A stretch of 61,236 bases of DNA from an uncultured Verrucomicrobiota bacterium (GTDB taxonomy: Bacteria; Verrucomicrobiota; Verrucomicrobiia; Limisphaerales; UBA8199), in NCBI GenBank assembly GCA_903873945.1, contig CAIQQM010000191.1, positions 1 to 61,236 of the forward strand, read 5' to 3'. This document shows, piece after piece, positions 1,597 to 55,470 of the stretch; the stretch's first letter is position 1; the number at the start of each line of letters is the position of its first letter. The position numbers and the translations under genes were made by a program. The notes below the pieces were generated by a model. That model made no database searches. It saw only the letters and a list, made by a program, of their open reading frames with translations, and was not told the origin of the DNA.

Positions 1597-2898
1597 TTAA
1601 AACCGGCGGGGGCCGCCACCGAAAGGATTGGCCGGCTGCGAGGCGGCAGCGGCACTGGATGTGGTGAGCATGCTCGTAACGACCTGAGCGCCTTCAGCCA
1701 GGCCATCGAGCACCTCGGTCATTGAACCATCACTAATGCCGATCTTGATCTGGACCGGCTTTAATTTAGGCTCGCCAGCGAGCTTCGCCTCAGGCTGGCC
1801 CGGGGGTAAATAAACGGTGCGCATGATTTGTTTTTCGGGACGCGACCGGGTGCCAGTGCCGCCGCGGCCGCCGCTACTAGCGGAAGCGCCCTGGCCGCCG
1901 CCGGGGGCTTGTCCTTGAACCATGCGTGAGGCTGGGGCATTGGTACCGCTTTGGGGTGTCGCTGTCTCAGGTGGGCGGAAGCGCAAAGCTGCGTTGGGGA
2001 TTTTCAACACATTTTGTTGTTGCGCGATGATGATGGATACATTCGCGGTCATGCCGGGTAGCAATTTCAAGTCGGGGTTGGCAACCTCGATTACGCAGTC
2101 ATAACTGATGACGTTTTGGTTTGTCACCGCGCCATAGCGGAGTTGGCTGACTTTTCCATGGAATGTGCGATACGGATACGCATCCACGGAGAAGTTCACG
2201 TTCTGCCCGACCGCGACACCGCCGATATCCGCTTCCGAGACGAGGCCGTCAATCTGCATTTTGGCCAAATCATTGGCGATAAGAAAGAGGGTGGGCGTAT
2301 TGAAGCTGGCAGCAACGGTCTGACCGACGTCCACGCTTCGCGAGATAACAACCCCGTCCACAGGCGCGTAAATCGTGCAATATGAGAGCTGCACGTTCGA
2401 GTTTTTCAGAGTTGCTTCGCCACTTTGGACCTGTGCTTCAGCCTGTTGCATTTGAGCAATGGCGGTATCATGGTCGGACGCGGAGATTAAGTTATTGGTA
2501 AAAAGCGAGTTTGCGCGTCGGGCCTGGACTTGGGCGAGAGCAAGATTGGCTTTGGCGTTGGCCACGTCGGCTTTGGCCTTGAGCACGTTGACTTCAAGGG
2601 TGGAAGGGTCAATCTCCGCGATAACCTGGTTGGACTTAACGACGGAATTGTAGTCAACGTAAAGCTTCCTAATGATACCGGAAATCTGGCTGCCGACTTG
2701 CACGGTAACCACAGGGCCTAACTGTCCGGTGGCGGTAACAACCTGAGTCAAATCGCCACGGGTGACAGTTGTCGTCTGATACTCCAAGCCGACATCGCGA
2801 GTGTGTTTAAGATACCAGACCGCGCCGCCTGCCACCGCGCAGAGCGCCGCGAGAATCAATGCCCACTTAGCCCAACGGAACTTGCCATCGTTTGCCAT
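1597..2898 (-). CDS. Efflux periplasmic adaptor subunit (MacA/HlyD family)
   Basis: N-terminal TM, VQVGSQISGII, coiled-coil hairpin, TIYAPVDGVVI, GQTVAASFNTPTLF, LLPGMTANV. Confidence 0.92.
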   Translation of the reverse strand: MANDGKFRWAKWALILAALCAVAGGAVWYLKHTRDVGLEYQTTTVTRGDLTQVVTATGQLGPVVTVQVGSQISGIIRKLYVDYNSVVKSNQVIAEIDPSTLEVNVLKAKADVANAKANLALAQVQARRANSLFTNNLISASDHDTAIAQMQQAEAQVQSGEATLKNSNVQLSYCTIYAPVDGVVISRSVDVGQTVAASFNTPTLFLIANDLAKMQIDGLVSEADIGGVAVGQNVNFSVDAYPYRTFHGKVSQLRYGAVTNQNVISYDCVIEVANPDLKLLPGMTANVSIIIAQQQNVLKIPNAALRFRPPETATPQSGTNAPASRMVQGQAPGGGQGASASSGGRGGTGTRSRPEKQIMRTVYLPPGQPEAKLAGEPKLKPVQIKIGISDGSMTEVLDGLAEGAQVVTSMLTTSSAAAASQPANPFGGGPRRF

Positions 2899-3099
2899 AA
2901 TTCAGTGTGAAACAGCTACTAACACAATTAAGACGCAAACCTTAGCTAATGGGTTGCGGGATGTCCAACCCTTCCCGCAGCTCCGCAGCCGGCAGGTCGC
3001 AAGAAGAATCTGCAGGGCCAGACTGGAACCGACCCCCCCGAGTCCATCGGAGGTAACTTTGGACTTTGGGGTTTGGACCTCAAACCTTAGGATTGGTTC

Positions 3100-4152
3100 A
3101 TGCTAGAAAAACTCGGTCGCCAGCTCACCACATCAAAACCTCTGACGGAGGAACAGGTCCGCGAGGCGGTCGAGCGCCTTATTGACAAATCTGTCACAGT
3201 GCAGACAAAGGCCGATTTCCTGATTCGCCTGACGCAAAAGGGGGAGACGCCGAAAGAAATCGCTTTGTTTGCTCGCGCCTTGCGCGCCAAATCCATCCAG
3301 GTTGAGCTTGCTGCCGAGATGCGAGAGCATGAAGTGTTGGATGTGGTGGGTACGGGTGGCGATCACCTGACCACGTTTAACATCTCGACAGCCGTAGCTC
3401 TCGTGGCGGCGGCGGCGGGCGTGCTGGTAGCCAAGCATGGCAACCGGGCCAGCACCTCGCTAACGGGCAGCGCGGATGTTATGGAGGCCCTGGGCATCCC
3501 TCATGACCTTGGGCCTGAGGAAGCGGTGCGCTCGTTACGGACGCACGGGTTCGCATTTTTCTTTGCGGCCAAATATCACCCGGCGTTTCGGCACATTATC
3601 CCGGCGCGGAAGCTCTGCGCCGAGAGAGGCCACAGCACGATCTTCAATTTTCTCGGGCCGCTGCTGAATCCGGCGCAACCTAGCGCGATGCTGGTCGGCG
3701 TTCCGCGCCCAGAGCTGAGCGAACCATTCGCTCGCGTTCTCCAGTCCCTGGGAGTGAGGCGGGCCATGGTCGTAAGTGGCGCTGTGCCGGGGAATGCAGG
3801 GACTGTGCGATATCTGGATGAGATTTCCCCTCTGGGCCCGACAACGGTTGCCGAATTTTACCAGGAGCGCGGCATGTCCTGTTCGAAGCTGCAGCCAGAG
3901 CCCTTTCCGCTGCAGTTAGCCACTTTGGAAGATCTGCGCGGAGGAGATCGTGAGATGAACGCCGAGATCATCCGCCGAATCCTGCGTGGCCAGGAGCGGG
4001 GACCAAAACGCGATGCGGTTTTGCTCAATGCCGCCGCGGCGCTTTTCGTTGGCAGCAAAGCTCGATCGCTGGGCGAAGGTTGGGAGCTGGCGGTTGAAAC
4101 GATCGATAGCGGGAAAGCTTACAAGAAACTTGGCGAGCTAATTGCAGGCTGA
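3100..4152 (+). CDS. trpD: Anthranilate phosphoribosyltransferase
   Basis: DVVGTGGD, FNIST, KHGNR, GSAD, FNFLGPLLNP motifs. Confidence 0.95.
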   Translation: MLEKLGRQLTTSKPLTEEQVREAVERLIDKSVTVQTKADFLIRLTQKGETPKEIALFARALRAKSIQVELAAEMREHEVLDVVGTGGDHLTTFNISTAVALVAAAAGVLVAKHGNRASTSLTGSADVMEALGIPHDLGPEEAVRSLRTHGFAFFFAAKYHPAFRHIIPARKLCAERGHSTIFNFLGPLLNPAQPSAMLVGVPRPELSEPFARVLQSLGVRRAMVVSGAVPGNAGTVRYLDEISPLGPTTVAEFYQERGMSCSKLQPEPFPLQLATLEDLRGGDREMNAEIIRRILRGQERGPKRDAVLLNAAAALFVGSKARSLGEGWELAVETIDSGKAYKKLGELIAG

Positions 4153-7573: not shown

Positions 7574-7738
7574 CTAGCGAGAAAATAGGGCCTTATGTTG
7601 CCAATCTCTTTGCGGCGGGGGGGCATCGCGAGCGGCGCGGTCGTATTCGTTTGGCTGTAAAATGCCGGCGATAAGCTTGAAAAACAACAAGACAGAGAAC
7701 CGCTTTTCGGAGCTGCTAGCGCAGTTGCTCACGAAGAG

Positions 7739-7965
7739 TTAACGCCCGCCCGTAACGGTGTACCCTCCTGCCGCAAATCTTCCGCCAAATTCATTTCCAT
7801 CCTCGCTGCCGCTTCATACGGCATCGGGTTCAAGTGTTCGTAAAGTTTCGGCAGCAAGCGGATGCCGTAGCGTTTCACCAGTGAGACCGCCTCGGTGCCT
7901 GCCTTGTGATTGGCAAATCGTTCTTGCGGCGTCAACCCCATTGTCCCCACATAAATGCGCGGCTT
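7739..7965 (-). pseudogene. 5'-truncated, frameshifted small GIY-YIG-like protein
   Basis: KPRIYVGTMGLTPQERFANHKAG...LYEHLNPMPYEAAARMEMNLAEDLR; the expected tail YTVTGGR* lies in a shifted frame (stop 7739-7741); 5' end replaced by the repeat. Confidence 0.65.
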
Positions 7966-8046
7966 GCAAGCCGTCCGTAAATCACTTACAAGGAGCCTCG
8001 TCAAGGGCCGACAAACACAGACACGTATGTTTAAAGTAATCGGGGC
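7960..8046 (+). repeat. 87-bp direct repeat, copy 2
   Basis: Matches 5710-5796 at an offset of 2250 bp; contains the ATG (8027) of the downstream GYF_2 gene. Confidence 0.95.
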
Positions 8047-8986
8047 GGATCAAAAGGAGTATGGGCCAGTCACTGCGGAGCAGTTGCGCCGCTGGATCGC
8101 CGAGGGGCGGGCGGGCGGGCAGACGATGGTTCAGGCTGAAGGCACAACCGAGTGGAAATTGCTTTCAACTTTTCCTGAGTTTGCGGACGACATAGCTGTG
8201 CGATCGGCCGGAGAAAATGCGGGTCAGACTGCCGGAGTGAACCCAGGGTTGCCGGAAGACATTTTCTCGCGCGATTACGGTCTGGATATTGGCAATTGCA
8301 TCGGGAGTTCCTGGGAGCTGCTGAAGAGTAATTTCGGGCTGATTTTCGGCGGCGTGGCCGTTTTTCTTCTGGTCCAGGTTGCCGTATCCCTATTGGGGCG
8401 AATTCCGCTTATCGGCATCGTGTTATCGATTGCAAGCCTTGTCGTCACCGGACCTTTGACCGGCGGCCTCTACCTGTTTCTGTTAAAAAACATCCGCCGG
8501 CAGGCCGCCGACATTGGCGACGTTTTTTCGGGATTCCGGCTCGCATTCCTTCAACTGCTCCTTGGCTATCTTGTGCCCGCCGGTTTGACCTGCCTTGCGG
8601 CACTTCCCGGCGCTGCACTCATGGCCTTCCCGATTATCCGGATGGTCCACGAACGGTCCGTCGAGCCGGGACCGTTCCTTGTGGCACTGCTGGGCGGTAT
8701 CGTCGCAATTATTCCGATGATCTACCTGGGCATCAGCTGGATGTTCACCCTGCCGCTCATCATCGACAAACAAATGGACTTCTGGCCGGCGATGAACGCG
8801 AGCCGGAAGATGGTGGGAAAGCACTGGTGGCAGGTTTTGGGGCTCGTAGTGGTGTGCGGCCTGGTTAACGTGGCGGGAATTCTCGCTTGCTGTGTGGGTC
8901 TCCTTATTAGCCTGCCCATTGTCCTGGGGGCTCTAATGTACGCCTATGAGCGGATCTTCTCCCCAACAACCTCGCAAACCCCTTGA
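8027..8986 (+). CDS. GYF_2 + multi-pass membrane protein (DUF975-like)
   Basis: MFKVIGADQKEYGPV start parallels the other two GYF_2 genes; five or six TM segments; FWPAMNASRKMV motif. Confidence 0.8.
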   Translation: MFKVIGADQKEYGPVTAEQLRRWIAEGRAGGQTMVQAEGTTEWKLLSTFPEFADDIAVRSAGENAGQTAGVNPGLPEDIFSRDYGLDIGNCIGSSWELLKSNFGLIFGGVAVFLLVQVAVSLLGRIPLIGIVLSIASLVVTGPLTGGLYLFLLKNIRRQAADIGDVFSGFRLAFLQLLLGYLVPAGLTCLAALPGAALMAFPIIRMVHERSVEPGPFLVALLGGIVAIIPMIYLGISWMFTLPLIIDKQMDFWPAMNASRKMVGKHWWQVLGLVVVCGLVNVAGILACCVGLLISLPIVLGALMYAYERIFSPTTSQTP

Positions 8987-9317
8987 CCGTTCCACCGCGC
9001 GCAACTGCGCGCTGATCAACCAACTGGCGACGCCCGGATTGGGTTCGCTCATGGCCCGACGGTTCGTGGCTGGAACAGGGCAGATCCTTCTGGCTCTTGG
9101 CGGTTTCGGAATGATGATCACCTGGTTCGTCCTGCTGGCCGTCCAGACCTACCATCAAATCACCAACGACTTGCCGCCGAGACCAGTTGGCTGGCTCGGC
9201 GGGGCGGGCGCGCTGGTATTCGCCGCCTCATGGCTGTGGTCGCTCTTTACCAGCCTCAGCATTTTGCGGGAAGCGCGCGCCAATGAACCCCAATCCCGCC
9301 CTGACCTTCCAGGCTGA
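8946..9317 (+). CDS. Small hypothetical membrane protein
   Basis: NQLATPGLGSL motif plus two TM segments; fills the gap before the mutS stop. Confidence 0.6.
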   Translation: MSGSSPQQPRKPLDRSTARNCALINQLATPGLGSLMARRFVAGTGQILLALGGFGMMITWFVLLAVQTYHQITNDLPPRPVGWLGGAGALVFAASWLWSLFTSLSILREARANEPQSRPDLPG

Positions 9318-39511: not shown

Positions 39512-40339
39512 GTGAGTGCTGTCATTAAACTTTCCTGGCCGGCAACCCGCGAATTTTGGGAAATCCCGGTCTTATACGAGGACGAACATCTGCTCGCGCT
39601 TAATAAGCCTGCGTGTATGCTGGTGTCGCCAGACCGTTCCGAACCCGAGCGGCCCAACCTGATGCAATTATTGCATTCGGGGATTGAGCAAGCGAAACCC
39701 TGGGCCAGGGAGCGCGGGCTGGTGTACCTCATGAACGCGCATCGGCTTGATTTCGAGACCAGCGGCGTGTTCCTGCTAGGCAAGAACAAGCCGGCCTTCG
39801 TTGCGGTTGTGAATCTTCTCGGCGCTGGAAGAGGCCACCGGAAGTACATCGCCCTAGTGCGAGGCGTTCCGACGGAAGACCGGTTTGAAATCGAAGCGAA
39901 ACTTGCGCCAAACCCTGTGAGACCCGGGATAATGCGGATTGATTCGAAGCGGGGTAAACAATCGCACACGGTTTGCGAGGTGCTTGAGAGGTTTTCCGGG
40001 CATGCGCTTTTGAAATGCGAGGCTTTGACTGATCGGCTCGGGCAGATTCGGCTTCATCTGCGCCATGCCGCGCTCACCATCGTGGGGGATCGTCTTTATG
40101 GCGGACGCCCCCTATTGCTTTCACAATTGAAGCGGGACTATTGGTTGAAGCCGGACCAGATCGAGCGTCCGCTGATTGATTGCGCGGCGCTTCACGCGGA
40201 AGAGCTTTCTTTCCCGCACCCGATGACGGGCGAGTTACTGACCATCATGGCGCCGTGGCCAAAGGACCTGAAAGTGGCGGTGAAATATTTACAGCGATAC
40301 GGCCGCACCGTCCGGGCGAACCAATCGGCGGATGAATGA
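39512..40339 (+). CDS. RluA-family pseudouridine synthase
   Basis: LNKPA, HRLDFETSG, IVGDRLYG, ALHA. Confidence 0.88.
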   Translation: MSAVIKLSWPATREFWEIPVLYEDEHLLALNKPACMLVSPDRSEPERPNLMQLLHSGIEQAKPWARERGLVYLMNAHRLDFETSGVFLLGKNKPAFVAVVNLLGAGRGHRKYIALVRGVPTEDRFEIEAKLAPNPVRPGIMRIDSKRGKQSHTVCEVLERFSGHALLKCEALTDRLGQIRLHLRHAALTIVGDRLYGGRPLLLSQLKRDYWLKPDQIERPLIDCAALHAEELSFPHPMTGELLTIMAPWPKDLKVAVKYLQRYGRTVRANQSADE

Positions 40340-47260: not shown

Positions 47261-47794
47261 GTGGGAATGAGACCAGCGAATTCCATCCTCCGGAGCCCAA
47301 GCCGCCGCATCGCCGCCATCGCTCTGCTCGTGATTGCGCTCGACCAGGTGACGAAACAAATCGTCCTCCGCTTCCTAGGCTATTCGGAAGAAAAAGTCGT
47401 GCTCGCGGGCTTCTTCAAATTCGTCCATTGGGGCAATACCGGCGCCGCCTGGAGCCTTTTCCGCGGCAACAACATGCCGCTCGCGGTCATTGCCCTGATC
47501 GCTCTCGTTGTCCTGTTTTTCAGCCGTCACCATTTTGACTCGCACACTTTGCTCGGTCAGGTCGCCTTTGGCCTCATCTTCGGCGGCATTGTGGGCAACC
47601 TCATCGACCGCCTGCGAGTCGGGCATGTCATTGATTTTATTTATTTCTACCTCCAGCAACGCGGCGGCGGCGAAGTTGGTTTCCCGGCTTTTAATATTGC
47701 TGACAGCGCCATCTGCATCGGCGTCGGTTTGGTCTTCCTCATAACCTGGAAAAGTGAGCGCGCACCCGAGACCCCCGTAGCGGGCGAGCCGTAG
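47261..47794 (+). CDS. lspA: Signal peptidase II
   Basis: DQVTK, NTGAAW, GNLIDR, VIDF, FNIAD. Confidence 0.96.
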
Positions 47795-48735
47795 TGATGT
47801 CCCTTCGCACCGAAGTCCTGACTATCGAAAAATCCCTCCCCTCCGGGCGGCTCGACACCTGGCTGCGCGGTAAATTCCCGGCTGTCTCCCGTGGAACCTT
47901 TCAAAGGCTCATTGAAGACGGCCACGTTCAAGTCAATGGATGCGCCGTCAAACCAACCCACACTCCCCGTGCCGGCGAACAAGTCGAGGTACGCTGGCCC
48001 GAGCCGCGTCCGGCGGTGGCCCAGCCGGAGGACATGCCGCTCGACATTTTATATGAGGATGACGCCCTACTCGTCCTGAACAAGCCTGCCGGACTCGTCG
48101 TTCATCCTGCCGGCGGTCACGAGGAACACACGCTCGTCAACGCGCTCCTGCACCATTGCGCCGGGAACCTGAGCGGCATCGGCGGCGTCGCCCGCCCGGG
48201 CATCGTGCACCGGCTCGACAAAGAAACCAGCGGCTGCCTTGTTGTCGCCAAGAACGATGACACCCACCTGGCTCTTTCCACCCAGTTCGCCAGCCGCAAG
48301 GTGAGCAAGATTTACAATGCCATCGTCTGCGGTGAACCCCAGCGGGACCACGGCGAAATTCATGCCGCCATCGCCCGCCATGCCTCCCATCGCAAACGCA
48401 TGGCGGTGGATGATGAGCGCGGGCGCGAGGCGAGGACGACCTATCGTGTCCTTGAACGGCTGCGCGGCTCCACACTCGTCGAAGCCGTCCTTCACACCGG
48501 ACGCACTCACCAGATCCGTGTCCATTTCCAGTTCCTGGGCTATCCGCTCGTGGGCGATACCACCTATGGGAACCGGCAAAACCAGCACTTGTCCGACCTG
48601 ACCCATTACACCGCCCCGCGCCAGATGCTGCACGCCTGTCAGTTGTCTTTCATCCATCCGCGAACCGGCCAACTCATGACCTTCAAAGCGCCGCATCCGG
48701 CGGATTTTCTGGAGGCCCTCTCAGCCTTGCGCTAA
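47794..48735 (+). CDS. rluD: RluD-like pseudouridine synthase with S4 domain
   Basis: RLDTWL S4 domain, RPGIVHRLDKETSG, TGRTHQIRVH; follows lspA. Confidence 0.88.
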   Translation: MMSLRTEVLTIEKSLPSGRLDTWLRGKFPAVSRGTFQRLIEDGHVQVNGCAVKPTHTPRAGEQVEVRWPEPRPAVAQPEDMPLDILYEDDALLVLNKPAGLVVHPAGGHEEHTLVNALLHHCAGNLSGIGGVARPGIVHRLDKETSGCLVVAKNDDTHLALSTQFASRKVSKIYNAIVCGEPQRDHGEIHAAIARHASHRKRMAVDDERGREARTTYRVLERLRGSTLVEAVLHTGRTHQIRVHFQFLGYPLVGDTTYGNRQNQHLSDLTHYTAPRQMLHACQLSFIHPRTGQLMTFKAPHPADFLEALSALR

Positions 48736-48748
48736 ATGAGCGAGCTTT

Positions 48749-49567
48749 TTGCCGCTATCAATTGATGCGATTGTGGAAAAGCTGTTTGAGATCGTTTACG
48801 AAGACGACGAGTTGCTGGTAATCAACAAGCCAGCCGGCCTGGTTTGTCATCCGACCAAGACGGATGGGTATTCCAGTTTGATCAGCCGGGCGCGGCTTTA
48901 CCTGGGCGCGGGCTCGCACCCGCAGTTGGTGAACCGGCTGGACCGCGAAACCAGCGGGGTGACACTTGTAGCCAAACGTGAGGATGCGGCGCGCGAACTG
49001 CGCCGGATCTGGGAAAACCGGCTGGTGGAAAAGGAATATGTGGCCGTAACGCATGGGCATGTGCGCGAGAGCCACGGCGTCATCGATGCGCCGCTGGGCA
49101 AGGACGAGCAGAGCCGGGTGGCGATCAAGGATTGTGTGCGGGCGGATGGCGCTTCGGCGCGGACCGAGTATTGGGTGATGGAAAGAATGAGCATCGAGGC
49201 CGGAAGCCGGTGGCCTGAAGCCGGGAATCAAGCCACAGCGGAGCAGCAATTGCCAATTGCCGGGCGCCGGTTGCCAACCACCATCCTCCGCGTGCAACCT
49301 CACACGGGACGGAAGCACCAGATCCGGATCCACCTGGCGCACATCGGCCATCCGATCGTCGGCGACAAAATTTACGGTGGCGATGAGACTTTGTACCTGG
49401 CGTTCGTGGAGAGCCGTCTGACAGCGGAACAACAACAATGCCTGATTCTCCCGAATCACGCTTTGCATGCCCGCGAGGTGCGGTTCCCGTGGCGCGGCGG
49501 GAGAACGGTTTTTCGCGCCGAACCCGGGGCGGGTTTTCCATGCCTTTGTCCGCAATCCGCAGCTTAG
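48749..49567 (+). CDS. RluA-family pseudouridine synthase
   Basis: INKPAG, NRLDRETSG, TGRKHQIRIH, IVGDKIYG; about 28-aa loop insertion. Confidence 0.88.
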   Translation: MPLSIDAIVEKLFEIVYEDDELLVINKPAGLVCHPTKTDGYSSLISRARLYLGAGSHPQLVNRLDRETSGVTLVAKREDAARELRRIWENRLVEKEYVAVTHGHVRESHGVIDAPLGKDEQSRVAIKDCVRADGASARTEYWVMERMSIEAGSRWPEAGNQATAEQQLPIAGRRLPTTILRVQPHTGRKHQIRIHLAHIGHPIVGDKIYGGDETLYLAFVESRLTAEQQQCLILPNHALHAREVRFPWRGGRTVFRAEPGAGFPCLCPQSAA

Positions 49568-49640
49568 CAGTCATAACCACTTAGCTTCGGCTTAGAACTG
49601 AGTGAACGGCAGACAAGAAGCAGCGGAGCGAACGGGCGCG

Positions 49641-49680
49641 GTACACCCGGGTACACTTTTGTACACCGGGGTACACCGAA
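49641..49680. repeat. 4 x GTACAC at exact 10-bp period
   Basis: gtacacccgg gtacactttt gtacaccggg gtacaccgaa. Confidence 0.9.
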
Positions 49681-49703
49681 ATTAAAATTTTGGGGGTTTG
49701 ACA

Positions 49704-51134
49704 TCAGAGGCCTCGGAGTTTCCGTTCATAGATTTGCTGGGGTCGGCTGGCGACCAGGTATCGCAGCGCATCCGCCGCGTCATCGCCGCCGATGCCGTCG
49801 TCGTCGGGATCGACTTTGAGCACGTCCTCGGGACGGGCGGGGTCATGCTGGAGGGAAGGCAAGCAATCAATGAGACGGGCGCAGCGGCGATGGAAAAATA
49901 TCCGCGGCGCGACGGAAGCGGCCGGGTCGCCGAGGCGTTTGAGGACTGCAGCCCAGCCATTGACGCGGTCCATGCAGGCCGGGCGCAGGGAAATGCCGAG
50001 GTCAGAGTAGTGTTTGGCGATGGAGGCGCCGTCGCTTTGGCGCGCGAAGACATCGGTACCGGCGACGAAACGCCTGAGCACAGCCGAGTAGCGCCCCTGA
50101 AGGGTGACGTGATGACGCTGGAGCATGGCCTTGATGGCTTTGGCGTGACGTTCCGGCACCCAGTTTCGCTGAGCATGCTCATCCACCACAAAGAGGTTGC
50201 CGTCGCTGTCGAAACAGCCGAGCAGGGCGACGGTGTAATGGTGGAAGCCATAATCGAGGGCGGCGAACCATTCGACGCCGCGCGCGTCCGAGAAGTCGTC
50301 AATGACATGCGCCTCGCGCCGGAAGTTGGTAAAGAACTGGCCGGCGGCGATGTCCCAGTCGCCATCGCGCCAGGCGCGCTTTTGCCAGCCGGTGAGGCCG
50401 TCGAGGATGTCGCGGTATTCGGCATTGGTGAAGCAATTGTCGTTGAGGGTGGCGGGGATGAAGCGGGTAGTGGATTCGGCGCGTTGCTGGAAGGGAACGA
50501 TGTATTTAGTGCGGTACCAGGCGTGGCCGACACCGCCGGGGTTGGTCGTGGAGTAAACGCGGGGTCGCCAGGGCCGGCCGTCGCGCGCGACCTTGGAAGT
50601 GCGGCAGCAAGTGACGATGTCGTGGTACTTGCGGGAGGTCAGAGTGGTGGCTTCTTCAATGCCAATGACGTCGTATTCGAGGCCGAGATAGGCATCAATA
50701 TCTTTCTCACATTGGAAGTGGCCGGTGAAGATGCGGGAACCATTGGGAAAAGTGAGGAGGCCGCGTGACGGGGTAAAGCAATGAGACAGCCGGGGGAACA
50801 AGCGGCGGCGGAGGTCTTCGAAGCTTTCGAGATTGGACTTGCCGACCTTGCGGAGCAGAAGGCATTTGATGTCCGGGAACCGCTGGCAATCATCGATGCC
50901 CATCTGAGCGAGGAGCCAAAAGGATTTGCCACCGCCGCGGGCACCGCCGAAGCCGACAGCGACGGGACCGTCGGTTTGATCGCAGAGACGGGCGGCGGCG
51001 CTGGCGGCCAGTTGTTTCGGTTGGAGGAGGACGCCAGCGCGGATGAAGTTGAGCATTTGGTCCCGAGGGCAGCCGGCGGAACAGGCGGCGGCGGCGAAGT
51101 GGTCGGGCCCGGATGAGGGATAGAGGCTGGGCAT
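49704..51134 (-). CDS. Phage terminase large subunit
   Basis: Walker A GGARGGGKS, Walker B IGIEE, STTNPGG motif, nuclease ALDYG and DDAADALRY; reading frame intact. Confidence 0.9.
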   Translation of the reverse strand: MPSLYPSSGPDHFAAAACSAGCPRDQMLNFIRAGVLLQPKQLAASAAARLCDQTDGPVAVGFGGARGGGKSFWLLAQMGIDDCQRFPDIKCLLLRKVGKSNLESFEDLRRRLFPRLSHCFTPSRGLLTFPNGSRIFTGHFQCEKDIDAYLGLEYDVIGIEEATTLTSRKYHDIVTCCRTSKVARDGRPWRPRVYSTTNPGGVGHAWYRTKYIVPFQQRAESTTRFIPATLNDNCFTNAEYRDILDGLTGWQKRAWRDGDWDIAAGQFFTNFRREAHVIDDFSDARGVEWFAALDYGFHHYTVALLGCFDSDGNLFVVDEHAQRNWVPERHAKAIKAMLQRHHVTLQGRYSAVLRRFVAGTDVFARQSDGASIAKHYSDLGISLRPACMDRVNGWAAVLKRLGDPAASVAPRIFFHRRCARLIDCLPSLQHDPARPEDVLKVDPDDDGIGGDDAADALRYLVASRPQQIYERKLRGL

Positions 51135-51141
51135 GGCGAGT

Positions 51142-51822
51142 TCAGGGGTGAGATTGAAGAGGGGCCGTGTTTGGAGCAGACGCAGCCAGAGCAACGGGCG
51201 GCTGGGCGTAGGCTTTGTTGAGAGCGGCGGCGAGTTCCATCTGGAGCGGTGCCAGGACAGGCTCCTGCGGACCGGTATCGCCGCTCAGGGCCTGGCGGGC
51301 GATCCGGGAGGAGATTTGCAACGCACGAGCAACCTGAGCCAGCGTCATTTTTTCCACATCCCGGTCGCCGAAACTTTCGAGAAAGCATTGCACGGTGGCG
51401 TGGAGTTTTTGGGCCACAGCCCATTCCTGCTCGCGATATTCGGCGGTGCGTCGAGCCCAATCCGCGGACTGTTTCGCGCGCAAGGCGGCCTCGGTTTCGG
51501 CTTGTTGCTGGAGGAGGCCGGAGTTAAAGGACTGAATTCGGTCGCGCCAATGGAACCGGCTGGACCACTTCTTGAGGGTATCGGGCTTCTCGGCGAGCTG
51601 GTCGGCAACGGCCTGAAGGGAGCGGGCGTGGCCGAGGCCAAAGAAAGCCATGAAGGCGCTGAAGGCGCGCGGAGTTTCACCGGGGAACAAGGGAAACACC
51701 GGTTGAGGGTCCGCCGGAAACGGGGCAGGCTCCGAGGAGATATCGGCGATCAGCGAGGGAGCGGGTTTGGTTTCGACCGCATGCGGGTCCGTGTTTTTTG
51801 GGGTTATGGCAAGCTGTATCAT
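51142..51822 (-). CDS. Putative terminase small subunit (HTH)
   Basis: PGETPRAFSAF...RSLQAVA...TLKKWSSRFHWRDR HTH-like N-terminus plus coiled-coil; stop 7 bp before the TerL start. Confidence 0.6.
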   Translation of the reverse strand: MIQLAITPKNTDPHAVETKPAPSLIADISSEPAPFPADPQPVFPLFPGETPRAFSAFMAFFGLGHARSLQAVADQLAEKPDTLKKWSSRFHWRDRIQSFNSGLLQQQAETEAALRAKQSADWARRTAEYREQEWAVAQKLHATVQCFLESFGDRDVEKMTLAQVARALQISSRIARQALSGDTGPQEPVLAPLQMELAAALNKAYAQPPVALAASAPNTAPLQSHP

Positions 51823-51837
51823 ATAATATTGATACAG
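51814..51837. promoter_or_regulatory. Operator-like palindrome over the small-terminase start codon
   Basis: CTGTATCA-N8-TGATACAG perfect 8-bp arms in the AT-rich divergent region. Confidence 0.6.
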
Positions 51838-51881
51838 TAAACTATTTTAGTTGCGCAAGCAAGGGGATGAATGTAATTTAC

Positions 51882-51894
51882 TTGTATGATACAA
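51882..51894. promoter_or_regulatory. Second operator-like palindrome
   Basis: TTGTAT-G-ATACAA; contains the same TGATACA half-site. Confidence 0.5.
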
Positions 51895-51971
51895 CTCGGA
51901 GGCGGTGACGGGGAGCAGGGGGCAAGCAACCCGTGAGCAGTAAACAATGAACAGTTAACAGTGACCAAGCT

Positions 51972-52649
51972 ATGAAAACGAAAGCGAACCAAGCGATCCG
52001 GGAACTCCGGAAAACCATCGGGCAAACGCAGGGCGAATTTGCGGCCATGATTGGCGCCTCGAAGGATGCCGTCGCGAGCTGGGAAACCGGGCGGAACAAG
52101 TTGTCGGACCAATTTGCGCGGCGCATGGCGTTCGCCACGGGGGTGGACGAGGATGAGCTGCTGCGCGGGCGGGGCCCGCTGACCTGCTACGTGCCATACA
52201 CCGGCCACGAGCCTTTCACCGCGGCGGCGTTCGAGCGCTACCGGGGCACCTACTGGGGGCGTTCCGATGATAAATCGGCACAGCGGCACTACAAGAATTG
52301 CGCAGACGCGCTGTGGCTTCTGTTCATGGCGGCGGCGCGTCCGGGCGGCGGCAAAATCCGGCATCGGCTGCCCGGGGTGCTCGACTCGTTCATCCAATGG
52401 TGCCAGCGGACGCGGGAGGATTTTCTACTGGAGCCACAGATCGAGGATCAGCTTCGGCAACGGAAATCCAAGCTGGTGTTGAGCCGCAGCTACGGGCAAT
52501 GGCGGGCGATGCAGAAGGAGGATCCGAAGGTGATCCGGCTGATGGGTTTCAAGGACGATCCGCGGAAAGACGACGAGGAGGAGCTGTGTCTGGAAGCAGA
52601 CACCATCCCCATATGGAGGCCGGGATATCCGATGCGTGGGCCGAAGTGA
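51972..52649 (+). CDS. XRE/Cro-CI-type HTH transcriptional regulator
   Basis: IRELRKTIGQTQGEFAAMIGASKDAVASWETGR; divergent from the terminase genes. Confidence 0.88.
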   Translation: MKTKANQAIRELRKTIGQTQGEFAAMIGASKDAVASWETGRNKLSDQFARRMAFATGVDEDELLRGRGPLTCYVPYTGHEPFTAAAFERYRGTYWGRSDDKSAQRHYKNCADALWLLFMAAARPGGGKIRHRLPGVLDSFIQWCQRTREDFLLEPQIEDQLRQRKSKLVLSRSYGQWRAMQKEDPKVIRLMGFKDDPRKDDEEELCLEADTIPIWRPGYPMRGPK

Positions 52650-52710
52650 AGCGTGGCGGGCGGGCGGCAATCAGTGAACAGTGACCGATGACCGGGCAAT
52701 GAAACCGAAA

Positions 52711-52880
52711 GCCACGGATTAAACACGGATTTTTAGCCACAGATTTCACAGAGTCGAAGTTCGACTTCCCATCACAGACGGGGAAAAGGAACTTGGGATT
52801 CAACATGGATTGAAGTCCGGTTTCTGGCCGGGCGGCAGGGATGCCGCCGGCTACGGCAGGCCGGAAGCCCGCCGCTACTC
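52711..52880. repeat. Intergenic patch of short REP-like repeats
   Basis: CCACGGATT/CACGGATT/CCACAGATT/CACAGA units and a GGCGGCA-ggga-TGCCGCC hairpin; GCCACAGATTTCACAGA recurs at 55284-55300. Confidence 0.55.
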
Positions 52881-53043
52881 ATTTGCGTCGACTGACGGGC
52901 GGCTACGAGGGGTTAAGCGGAAGCTCGCGCCGACGTCAGAGGTGATGGGGCGTGGCTGGGGCGGAGGGCTTGAAAAAGGAGTGAGTGTCCGATTCCAATT
53001 TTCGCTCGACAAGTCCACCTGGTTTTGTCATATTCGCTCCGTA

Positions 53044-53460
53044 GTGAAGGCAGGCATCCCCGAATTGGTTCAGCCAGTCAACCAGGCTTCTCTGGAATGG
53101 AGCCTGAGCTTCGAAGCCACTACGGGCATCCTCCACGTCCACACCTCGGGCACTATTACCCGTGACTCCTTGCCCGGCTTGTTCGGTGACACCGTCGAAG
53201 GTTTGCGCCGTTACCATGCCCACCGCCTGCTCGTCGATAACCGGGATGCCAGCCTTGCACTGAGCCAGGAAGACATCCTCAGGGGGGCCCAGATGGCCCG
53301 CTCCGTCACGCCCGACCCCACCACCAAGCTTGCTATTGTGTTCTCCCACCTCGGTCCCATGGAACAGCTCATTCGTCAAAGTCTTTTCCTGTTCAACCTT
53401 CGGGTCGCAATCTTTGACCGCCTGGAGATAGCCATATCCTGGCTGACCGACAAGACCTAG
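53044..53460 (+). CDS. STAS/SpoIIAA-like hypothetical protein (start uncertain)
   Basis: GILHVHTSGTI..RLLVDNR..KLAIVF..IFDRLEIAISWL pattern; the upstream part of the tracked ORF is repeat-derived. Confidence 0.6.
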   Translation: MKAGIPELVQPVNQASLEWSLSFEATTGILHVHTSGTITRDSLPGLFGDTVEGLRRYHAHRLLVDNRDASLALSQEDILRGAQMARSVTPDPTTKLAIVFSHLGPMEQLIRQSLFLFNLRVAIFDRLEIAISWLTDKT

Positions 53461-53563
53461 GCGGCTGGCGGGTGCGCCTGCCGTATGGGTTGGCGGCGGC
53501 GGGGCGTGGTTCGTGGCTTTGTGGATGCGCGGGACGAGGGCGGGGGTTGCGGCTCAGAGGCGG
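53458..53563 (+). repeat. ~100-bp G-rich direct repeat, copy 1
   Basis: 41-bp core 53503-53543 matches 55007-55047 with 2 mismatches; weaker similarity extends back to the preceding stop codon. Confidence 0.85.
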
Positions 53564-53678
53564 CTGTTCAGGTTCAACGAAGGATTGACCCGGGACAGCA
53601 TTTATGATGGTTTCAGTTGTCAGTACGAACGGCGATGGCAACAGTAGTTTTGTCCTTTTAACACAACGGAACAATCAC

Positions 53679-54965
53679 ATGAAAACTCAAGCCCGCGGCT
53701 CAGAAATACGGATGCTGTTGTCAGTGATAATTCTCTTTGCCGGCGCCTTGCTGGCGCAGGCGGCGGACAAGAAAGGCGGGCCGAGCCCGGCTTCATGCGT
53801 GGCTTGCCATGAGAAACAGACGCCGGGGATCGTGACGGACTGGCGGATCAGCCGCCACAGCCAGGTGGACGTGGGCTGTGCGGATTGCCACGGCGACGGG
53901 CATCAGTCCACCAACGATGTTGCCCGGGTGAAAATTCCCACGCCGGACACCTGCGCGGAATGTCACGAGCAACAAGTGACGCAGTTCAAGAACGGCAAGC
54001 ACGCGCTGGCCTGGGCGGCGATGAAGGCGATGCCGACGATTCACTGGCAGCCGATGGCGATGATTGACGGCATGAAAGGGTGCGGCGGCTGCCACAAGAT
54101 CGGCTTGAAGTCGGAGCAGGAGATCAAGGACTTGAAAAAGAGCGGCGGGGGTTTCGGCCTGGCCTCATGCGACGCCTGCCACACGCGGCACACGTTCTCG
54201 GTAAAGGAGGCGCGGCAACCGCAGGCCTGCGAGACCTGCCACATGGGCTTTGACCATCCGCAGTGGGAAATGTATTCCGGCTCGAAACACGGCGTGCGCA
54301 GCAACCTCAAACAGATGGGCCTAATCGCCACGAATGCCGTCGCGCCAACGTGCCAGGCCTGCCACATGAACCAAGGCCATCACGACGTGGACACGCCGTG
54401 GGGATTCCTGGCTGTGCGCCTACCGTTGCCGGAAGACAAGCAATGGGCGGCGGACCGCGTAACGATTTTACAGGCGCTCGGCGTGCTGGATCCGGAGGGC
54501 AAACCCACCGCGCGCCTCGACGTGGTGAAGGCGGCCAGGGTCGCCAAGCTCACCCAGGAGGACTGGCAGAAGGAACGCGACGCGATGCTGTCCACCTGCA
54601 ATGAGTGTCACTCGGGCAATTTCGCCAAGGAGCAACTCGCTCAGGGCGACAACATGATCAAGGAATCCGATCATCTGATGGCGGAGGCGATCCGCGTGGT
54701 GGCGGGACTTTACCAAGACGGTTCGCTGAAGAAACCGGCGAACTACGTCAGCGCGTTTCCGGATTTGCTGACGTTTCACGACGCGCCGACGGTGATCGAA
54801 CAAAAACTGTTCGTCATGTATCTCGAACACCGGATGCGGGCATTCCAAGGCACGTTCCACGCGAATCCCGATTATGCGTTGTGGTACGGCTGGAGTGAGA
54901 TGCAGCGTGACCTGACGGAAATTAAGGCGCTCGCCGCGGAGCTAAAAAACCCAGCAAAGAAATAG
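53679..54965 (+). CDS. Octaheme c-type cytochrome, hydroxylamine oxidoreductase (HAO) family
   Basis: Signal peptide; 8 CxxCH (CVACH, CADCH, CAECH, CGGCH, CDACH, CETCH, CQACH, CNECH); HTRHTFS, HMGFDHPQWEMY..SKHG. Confidence 0.88.
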   Translation: MKTQARGSEIRMLLSVIILFAGALLAQAADKKGGPSPASCVACHEKQTPGIVTDWRISRHSQVDVGCADCHGDGHQSTNDVARVKIPTPDTCAECHEQQVTQFKNGKHALAWAAMKAMPTIHWQPMAMIDGMKGCGGCHKIGLKSEQEIKDLKKSGGGFGLASCDACHTRHTFSVKEARQPQACETCHMGFDHPQWEMYSGSKHGVRSNLKQMGLIATNAVAPTCQACHMNQGHHDVDTPWGFLAVRLPLPEDKQWAADRVTILQALGVLDPEGKPTARLDVVKAARVAKLTQEDWQKERDAMLSTCNECHSGNFAKEQLAQGDNMIKESDHLMAEAIRVVAGLYQDGSLKKPANYVSAFPDLLTFHDAPTVIEQKLFVMYLEHRMRAFQGTFHANPDYALWYGWSEMQRDLTEIKALAAELKNPAKK

Positions 54966-55062
54966 GGCGGCTAACAGGTCCGCCTTCCGTGTGGTTTTGC
55001 GGCGGCGGCGTGGTCCGTGGCTTTGTGGATGCGCGGGACAAGGGCGGCGCTTCAAGAGGCGG
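54963..55062 (+). repeat. ~100-bp G-rich direct repeat, copy 2
   Basis: Begins at the cytochrome stop codon; aligns with 53458-53563. Confidence 0.85.
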
Positions 55063-55470
55063 GTTTCTGATCGTTGTTTCCGGAGTGTGGTTTTTTGGCG
55101 CCTGATTTGGCGCGGTACTTAGGGACTGAGTCGTGGAGGGCAACCGCGGCAAGCTGGGTTGCAGTGGGAGTTTGGGTGTGGAGCTGGATTTGAAGGTCGG
55201 CTTCGCATAAGCATGGAATCTTCCATTTCGGATTGCGGATTGAAGCCAGAAGGTCTGGCCACAGATTGGGAAAAGGAATTTTGGCCACAGATTTCACAGA
55301 TTTCCGGGGCAGGAATTTAACGTAAAGACGGTCCGGGCCGGACCCGCCAAGAGACACGAAGGCTCTGCAAAACCAGAATAAAAGGGGACCCCATTAACGG
55401 TCAATCAATGAACCGGGGCTTGCGGGGGAATGGGTTACAAGCTGGCAAGTTGGCGTTTTCAATTTTTCGC

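Follow-up and report, generated by a model that had tools for sequence, protein, structure and literature searches.

A terminase gene pair with a divergent XRE regulator and a phased repeat array recurs without capsid genes in Verrucomicrobiota chromosomes

According to passages of PMC10690885, known phage satellites integrate and carry replicases, and some Staphylococcus aureus pathogenicity islands (SaPIs) carry a small terminase subunit (TerS). Capsid-forming phage-inducible chromosomal islands (cf-PICIs) encode both terminase subunits together with capsid genes (passages of PMC10690885; 10.1101/2022.09.08.507074), and in the main-text passages on virion-encapsidated integrative mobile elements (VEIMEs) homologues of the small subunit are the sole terminase genes reported (PMC9618062). 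Here we describe a locus of another composition. The window, a stretch of 61,236 nucleotides from an uncultured Verrucomicrobiota bacterium, is one entire contig (CAIQQM010000191.1) of a metagenome-assembled genome (MAG) with 312 contigs and a completeness of 90.5%. At 49704-52649 its list of open reading frames (ORFs) contains three intact genes amid housekeeping genes, namely a large terminase gene (terL), a small terminase gene (terS) and a divergent regulator gene of the XRE family, hereafter the cassette. Comparison with related loci indicates that it belongs to a separate lineage of terminase cassettes without capsid genes in Verrucomicrobiota chromosomes, which have a fixed layout: regulator (here XRE), divergent promoter with palindromic operators, terS, terL, AT tract and phased repeat array. 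We found no report in the literature of an orphan, domesticated or stand-alone terminase unit.

As far as the cited passages go, SaPI-type PICIs and VEIMEs are chromosomal, bring their own packaging-specificity gene and recognition site and use another phage's capsids (PMC10690885, PMC9618062), a combination that we propose for the cassette as well. Their integrase and replicase have no counterpart in the cassette; they rely on the helper's large terminase, whereas the cassette encodes both terminase subunits. Since neither an integrase nor replication genes were found in the window or beside the related cassettes, the cassette falls outside the usual definition of a satellite. With the cf-PICIs, as far as they are described in these sources, it shares the possession of both a small and a large subunit; those integrative islands also encode capsid, protease, portal and connectors, whereas the cassette encodes the terminase only. 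The terminase of gene transfer agents (GTAs) such as RcGTA is likewise fixed in the host, under host regulation and would package chromosomal DNA, but GTAs possess a full head-tail gene set, and such a set was not detected in the window's genome. GTA packaging is described as random; the cassette by contrast has a specific array. The pacL and pacR sites of phage SPP1 resemble this array in that, in the passages concerned, short sets of direct repeats and an AT-rich stretch lie beside the terminase genes (PMC4737164). The array of the cassette, a candidate site only, differs from them by its position 3' of terL, its strict 10-11-nt phase and its 4-6 units.

The terL gene (49704-51134, minus strand) encodes 476 amino acids plus a stop codon. 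Its ORF extends further (49704-51194, 496 amino acids from a TTG at 51194), and the likelier start is the ATG at 51132-51134, which the terS stop codon TGA precedes by 7 nt. The gene is single-copy in the genome and contains neither a frameshift nor a stop. TerL matched six PHROG large-terminase families (best phrog_2, E 2.9e-25), no Pfam family at E<=0.01 and no NCBIfam model; unlike the window copy, its homologues reach Pfam Terminase_6N/Terminase_3. Searches of the PDB by sequence gave no match for TerL, TerS or a TerL profile. The top Foldseek matches of the AlphaFold model (pLDDT 83.4) were the full-length D6E (E 2e-19), Sf6, HK97 and T4 terminases, with E values down to 6e-10, and the nuclease domains of P22, SPP1 and G20c matched as well. 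The model thus predicts the two-domain fold of an N-terminal ATPase and a C-terminal RNase-H-like nuclease. The original prediction, made from the window alone, had stated that the ATPase and nuclease motifs are retained, and the alignment of 25 TerL sequences bore this out: the invariant Walker-A stretch G61..K70, DVIGIEE (D155, E161), NPGG (198-201), DYG (294-296), E319 and GGDDxxDxxRY (449-459; D451/D452/D455) are all present in the window. Among these columns are the residues that we take to be catalytic.

Directly upstream lies terS (51142-51822, minus strand; 226 amino acids as listed), whose product matched phrog_6299 (E 1.1e-20). Where its translation begins is uncertain: the ~45 N-terminal residues lack conservation, and the ATG of the listed ORF falls inside the first of two operator-like repeats. 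Across the cassette copies a helix-turn-helix (HTH)-like core, PGETPRAFSAF...WSS..W, is highly conserved. The regulator gene (51972-52649, plus strand; 225 amino acids) is divergent from terS across a gap of 149 bp (51823-51971). An intact terminase pair with a divergent XRE gene at this distance had been predicted, in agreement with the ORFs, the PHROG and Pfam matches and the lack of any frameshift. Elsewhere in the genome there is a second, solitary TerS-like gene (contig C205, 2080-3822, locus L023; 279 amino acids, phrog_6299 at 2.8e-13), located between rpsA and an MFS transporter/tyrS, with a divergent 221-amino-acid ORF and no adjoining terL.

As scanned with Pfam, the rest of the window contains housekeeping genes only, among others an arginine-synthesis cluster (amino-acid kinase, class-III aminotransferase, OTCase), rpsI/rplM, lspA, rluD/rluA pseudouridine synthases, mutS and a multihaem cytochrome. 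Neither integrase, transposase and phage structural families nor replication genes were found in its 61 kb, and the portal, capsid, tail, lysis or integrase genes that should neighbour the terminase in a complete or recently decayed prophage were not found there. An RluA-type gene (48749-49567, plus strand) converges on terL. Unitigs of two other runs from the same study (49512-50429 and 49096-49796) bridge rluA, the array and terL without a difference, and this left junction is therefore no assembly artefact. Identical pieces inside the cassette were present in one run from a different study, and a peat run contained pieces ~97-98% identical to the window, part of terL included. The right junction (~52740-52850) is a high-copy repeat that no listed unitig spans. 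It lies in a genome-wide interspersed repeat (52710-52886) that forms the right edge of the cassette, occurs in many tens of copies and is not cassette-specific; it shows a ~10-fold depth spike, consists of GCCACAGATTTCACAGA-like and GC-rich hairpin parts and breaks unitigs in all four runs. Misassembly, which the original prediction had considered, is thus ruled out on the left, while the right-hand repeat is bridged by no listed unitig. The GC content of the cassette (0.60-0.62) equals that of its flanks, so that composition gives no hint of a recent arrival. Contigs of two runs join ~52781-52789 to ~55215-55295, which may reflect a repeat-to-repeat join elsewhere or a variant without the 52.8-55.2 kb segment.

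Homologues of TerL are abundant in Verrucomicrobiota metagenomes, with 3668 matches at E<=1e-3 among 8000 candidates scored; the best 120 of these are 64-100% identical. Full-length terL was present in seven of 40 relatives' genomes (three with two copies), and five further genomes contained fragments only. A simple script that takes the longest ORF was used for gene calling in the related loci, and several contigs of the window type are only 2-5 kb long. On the basis of TerS there are two types, the window type being 48-71% identical to the window TerS and the second type ~30%. Window-type TerS was found in 12 metagenome loci, in the genomes G411, G173 and G415 (three loci) and in one further MAG, the scan of genome contigs being based on a four-sequence alignment. 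The closest homologues (TerL 69-77%, TerS 48-71% identical) are capsid-less, lie in host contexts and have the same kind of array. In the TerL tree one branch (support 83/86) divides the two TerS types; the window-type core comprises nine rows (99/95), and L143 and L144 form a separate pair (100/100). The window-type lineage is monophyletic for TerL, congruent with the TerS type.

Nine window-like loci extend at least 4 kb beyond terL (the window, L033, L034, L037, L054, L143, L144, L206 and L210). Around their terS-terL genes Pfam identified host genes, for example HtrA, sigma-70, nuo, rhamnosidase, ubiB, sucA and DUF1501, and in none of the nine were portal, capsid, scaffold, integrase or replication genes found. 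PHROGs gave no structural match among 26 unnamed neighbouring ORFs of seven of these loci. There are two exceptions to the purely host-like surroundings. In L206 (from G415) a collagen-repeat/Peptidase_S74 (endosialidase chaperone) gene at 7735-9294 lies 0.7 kb upstream of the cassette-type terS; the Peptidase_S74 domain is of a kind present in phage tail fibres. In L143 a small HNH-like ORF adjoins terS.

The second type is borne by prophages of a sister clade within the same order. Their TerL is ~64-70% identical to that of the window and shares its signatures and the C-terminal end ...GGDDAADALRY...KLRGL, and their TerS belongs to the same PHROG family. Unlike the cassettes, these terS-terL pairs follow a module of PD-(D/E)XK, PIF1-helicase and PrimPol/D5 genes (L014, L015, L016, L018; in L022 an AAA_25 protein replaces PIF1 and PrimPol/D5), and within 0-15 kb of most of them there are genes for a DUF4055 portal, a scaffold and a capsid. 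A DUF4055 portal is within reach in the second-type loci, and L016 and L039 contain scaffold and capsid genes too. The closed 6.03-Mb chromosome of G415 carries two cassette terL and five prophage-type terL, each of the latter with a DUF4055 portal 4-15 kb downstream and variable genes between. The sister-clade prophages also lack the array and the XRE-operator module of the cassette. In IMG/VR the best TerL match was 53% identical, and a pattern scan found no TerS relative.

The array lies 3' of terL, 26 nt past its stop codon. In the window the AT-rich tract AAATTAAAATTTT (49679-49691; AAAATTTCAATTTC-like in related loci) lies between the terL stop and a direct-repeat array (49640-49677) of four units, GGTACACC / GGTACACT / TGTACACC / GGTACACC, which start at 49640, 49650, 49660 and 49670. 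The prediction of a repeat array and a convergent rluA beyond terL was therefore correct, and the units are in exact 10-nt phase. With at most one mismatch, GGTACACC occurs 23 times in the window against 22.7 expected; as the word is not over-represented, the exact spacing is the signal. We regard the array as a candidate pac-like protein-binding site. Directly 3' of terL, the window and 14 distinct related loci carry an AT tract and 4-6 direct repeats with a 10-11-nt period; the related loci include L045/L046, which were not placed in either terminase clade. The repeat word differs in most loci: GGTGCC/GGTGCGC in L033, GGTGC in L034, GGTCATCT (six units) in L035, GGTGCGG in L037, GGTGTA in L041, GGTTCAC in L045/L046, GGTCTGGTT in L054, GGTCAT/AGTCAC in L143 and GGTCAC in L144; GGTTCC is common to L036/L073 and L206, and GGTAATC to L207 and L210. 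L043 has kept the AT tract without an array. The array was found in none of 13 distinct prophage-type loci and is a hallmark of the window-type cassette. Locus L144, from G173, has a 250-nt repeat/hairpin insertion (2890-3140) between terS and terL, both genes being intact, and a further insertion of 140 nt between terL and the array.

These comparisons bear on the possibility that the cassette is a functionless remnant of a prophage or satellite, whose terminase end survived deletion, and that its relatives are similar leftovers. For this speak the sister clade, in which terS-terL end a replication module within prophages and islands, the frequency of TerL fragments, the portal N-terminal fragments (42-53 amino acids) in the window's genome and the lack of an integrase or replication gene in the cassette. 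Independent decay, on the other hand, would not leave an intact terS-terL pair with an array, often with the same regulator, in nine loci; the type is monophyletic, array, AT tract and operators are conserved in position, and no such type was found in IMG/VR.

Selection was estimated from the ratio of nonsynonymous to synonymous substitution rates (dN/dS), many of the dS values being near 1. The cleanest comparison is that of L210 with L207, which represent one locus, with DUF1501 after terL, in two species. Their terL genes encode proteins that are 90.7% identical (dN 0.056, dS 0.51, dN/dS 0.11) and contain no stop in 464 codons; dN/dS is 0.26 for terS and 0.024 for the neighbouring gene, whose dS is 0.98. 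The lower dS of terL may reflect a later exchange of the cassette between lineages. For the window terL against other window-type copies dN/dS is 0.17-0.22, at a dS of 0.8-1.0 that is near saturation. TerS gave 0.21-0.38 and XRE 0.32-0.58. Pairs of the prophage-borne second type gave 0.05-0.09 for terL; that the cassette values exceed these would fit a remnant. The cassette is thus under purifying selection, weaker than in prophages. Fixed layout, monophyly, conserved cis elements, lack of head genes and purifying selection together argue against random debris, and we consider a functionless remnant unlikely. The original prediction had named as evidence against itself that the closest homologues all lie in complete prophages and that this copy is strain-specific with relaxed selection; the closest homologues are capsid-less, and selection is purifying.

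The regulator consists of an HTH (residues 1-65) and a conserved C-terminal domain of ~150 amino acids, which is present throughout a family of 187 members. It matched HTH_31 (34.1 bits, cut-off 27) and HTH_3 (29.2 bits, cut-off 23) in Pfam, and residues 1-69 of its model resemble C.AhdI, P22 c2 and the 434 repressor (Z 7.8-8.6). An S24 peptidase domain was not found, the C-terminal domain not having been searched by itself, and Foldseek and VIA-align matched the HTH of the model only and nothing in its C-terminal part. Upstream of terS there are two candidate operators. Inverted repeat 1 (51814-51837, CTGTATCA-N8-TGATACAG) overlies the listed terS start codon; palindrome 2 (51882-51894, TTGTATGATACAA) lies in the divergent promoter region and is retained in eight short copies of the cassette's non-coding parts, which are described below. 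The search of related genomes showed that the unit recurs without capsid genes and that four relatives keep an XRE homologue (47-69% identical); in L040, L042 and L144 its gene stands next to the terminase genes in divergent orientation, in L143 at a distance of 8.5 kb. Palindromes of the form TTGTAT..ATACAA or TTGTAG..CTACAA precede terS in seven of nine related window-type loci read, including L037 and L054, although the fetched flank shows no XRE gene there. L033 has GTTGCAAC-like repeats instead, and for L086 and L047 the sequence read was either coding or not long enough for a judgement. The subgroup of L206, L207 and L210 carries a different palindrome, CACTTGGAC-N7-GTCCAAGTG, and at E<=1e-5 no XRE homologue was found in G415; the regulator module is therefore exchangeable. 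On both sides of xre there are CAGTGAA-like repeats of heptamer period (51938-51966 and 52672-52693), probably of a generic type, as similar ones occur in other loci of the group.

Given its small size, its regulation, its host context and the purifying selection on it, the cassette might also serve anti-phage interference. The repressor would sense infection, and the terminase would cut or mis-package DNA or occupy procapsids and so abort the phage, DNA transfer being a by-product or absent. The HTH resembles regulators of the CapH and C-protein type from defence and restriction systems. Moreover, passages of PMC10690885 and PMC9618062 describe satellites that interfere with their helpers via packaging genes and count as defence elements. 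Against defence as the selected function, TerL and TerS matched none of the 5027 PADLOC models (2023 library), the XRE matches there were weak and restricted to the HTH (E ~3e-4), and a pure nuclease defence would not need a conserved cis array beside the genes. Defence is thus a possible but improbable explanation.

The genome contains nine clusters of GTACAC, all of one repeat family: the window and eight short copies (C124:34483-35201, C152:43776-44174, C157:1240-1558, C170:29007-29574, C204:6399-7199, C214:27557-28202, C276:23859-24446 and C310:906-1446) of ~0.3-0.8 kb, the shortest being that on C157 with ~310 nt. They lack terS-terL and xre and sit between unrelated housekeeping genes. 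They keep the array with the same repeat word as the window, the AT tract, an unassigned stretch of ~130 nt, the initial ~22 codons of terS (MIQ...VET.P), both operators and ~30 nt beyond. Their array part is 80-95% identical to the window and their promoter/terS part 69%; the ORF is broken by indels in two copies. In many of them a second, GGTAAAGTTTT-like array follows ~330 nt further on in the same orientation. Rfam gave no family match in the cassette or the short copies, and the family was not found in the 40 relatives' genomes, save for a generic 30-nt repeat. Six C-terminal TerL fragments of G415 (20-70 amino acids) have no arrays beside them and are therefore not the same thing as the short copies. 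Without the rest, the "left part" of the short copies (~300 nt, including the second phased array) is present on C268, C118, C212 and C156 as well.

The short copies may point to mobility or to additional sites that are served in trans. In one reading the cassette is itself a mobile element, autonomous or mobilisable, bounded by the array and the operator region; the short copies would then be its non-autonomous derivatives, which the terminase nuclease or an unlinked recombinase may have moved in trans. Eight dispersed copies with the same retained parts between unrelated genes, their absence from the relatives searched, the differing contexts of the cassettes between genomes and second arrays at ~330 nt, as if units pile up at arrays, are compatible with this. 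However, terminal inverted repeats, target duplications or a recombinase were not identified, and no mechanism for the spread of the short copies was found. We know of no terminase that acts as a transposase. An empty site was not found either: in all seven relatives examined the RluA orthologues share no neighbouring genes with the window, and with synteny lost the boundaries of an insertion cannot be defined. No contig in the four runs has a joint that removes exactly the cassette, although in contig-level data this absence proves nothing. Taken together, a mobile element is a quite improbable explanation.

Searches of the window's own genome, 90% complete, for the capsid family PF05065 and the portal family PF04860 gave no match, with positive controls. 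A tblastn search with 173 ORFs from ten relatives' loci detected only the TerS-like gene on C205 and portal N-terminal fragments of 42-53 amino acids. The latter (C157:129-263 and C276:24462-24608) are 51-60% identical to DUF4055-type portals of the sister-clade prophages, and both lie within ~1.3 kb of a short array copy. The predicted lack of portal, capsid and integrase genes therefore holds for the 61-kb window, and none was detected in the genome. The suggestion that unlinked portal or capsid genes might complete a split gene transfer agent, with the cassette as its packaging half and head and tail genes elsewhere, found no support. A host-fixed, regulated terminase without adjacent structural genes is what such an agent would show, and at 90% completeness the absence of the two families is not proven; nevertheless we consider a split agent highly improbable. 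Of the proposed domesticated, regulated unit, the part that it is kept and regulated is supported by recurrence and purifying selection, and the split-agent part is not.

We favour the view, with a probability of roughly one half, that the cassette is maintained as a packaging module under repressor control, that its site of action is its own pac-like array and that it needs the capsids of another phage. The regulator would keep the operon off. Upon a signal such as phage infection or damage, TerS would be made and assemble on the phased repeats as its own pac-like site. TerS would then recruit TerL, which would cut nearby and dock on procapsids of a related phage, so that cassette-linked chromosomal DNA is packaged in borrowed capsids, the phage is interfered with, or both. 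The short copies, carrying the same repeat word, might be eight further sites for the same proteins. The C-terminus of TerL would contact the portal; the phages of the sister clade share this end and co-occur with cassettes in G415, which would fit borrowed procapsids.

Several points weigh against such a module. Binding, cutting and packaging by the cassette are all inferred. The search of the window's genome, 90% complete and in 312 contigs, detected neither a prophage of the helper type nor a portal or capsid. dN/dS is two to three times that of prophage-borne pairs, and decay does occur in the family, with TerL fragments in five of the 40 relatives and at six places in G415. In three second-type loci (L013, L019 and the integrase island L017) terL likewise abuts host genes. 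The regulator is not universal, as the G415/L207 group has another operator and no XRE homologue. The HTH-like core of TerS is conserved while the repeat words vary; simple co-variation predicts otherwise. In the passages concerned, the pac site of SPP1 spans promoters and the start of terS, whereas the array lies 3' of terL, and the DNA-binding domain of SF6 TerS shows little preference for repeat boxes (PMC4737164); the repeats thus need not be the recognition element.

A further possibility, tentative and in our estimate unlikely, is that the cassette acts as a gene transfer agent by proxy: the host would keep a repressor-gated terminase that starts headful packaging at its own arrays when a related phage infects or is induced, and the procapsids of the invader would carry segments of the host chromosome, at the invader's cost. 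If this is true, the nine sites in this genome (the cassette and eight short copies) would be chromosome-wide packaging origins served in trans.

Two other features of the window lie outside the cassette. Direct repeats of ~90 nt (53460-53548 and 54966-55052; 81-91% identical) flank the multihaem cytochrome gene (53604-54965). Three paralogues of the RluA/RluD family of pseudouridine synthases lie within 10 kb (39512-40336, 47794-48735 and 48749-49567), the latter two in tandem and with a common stretch of 66 nt at 73% identity.

Known satellites steal capsids by supplying a small terminase, or everything but tails. We found no maintained element that supplies only a complete terminase and its own site without means to excise or replicate. 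If the proposed module is real, it would be the smallest packaging parasite known to date, or else a transduction or defence device that belongs to the host. With the same proteins, the same array position and differing repeat words, the cassettes of the Verrucomicrobiota would also offer a natural series for how terminases choose their DNA.

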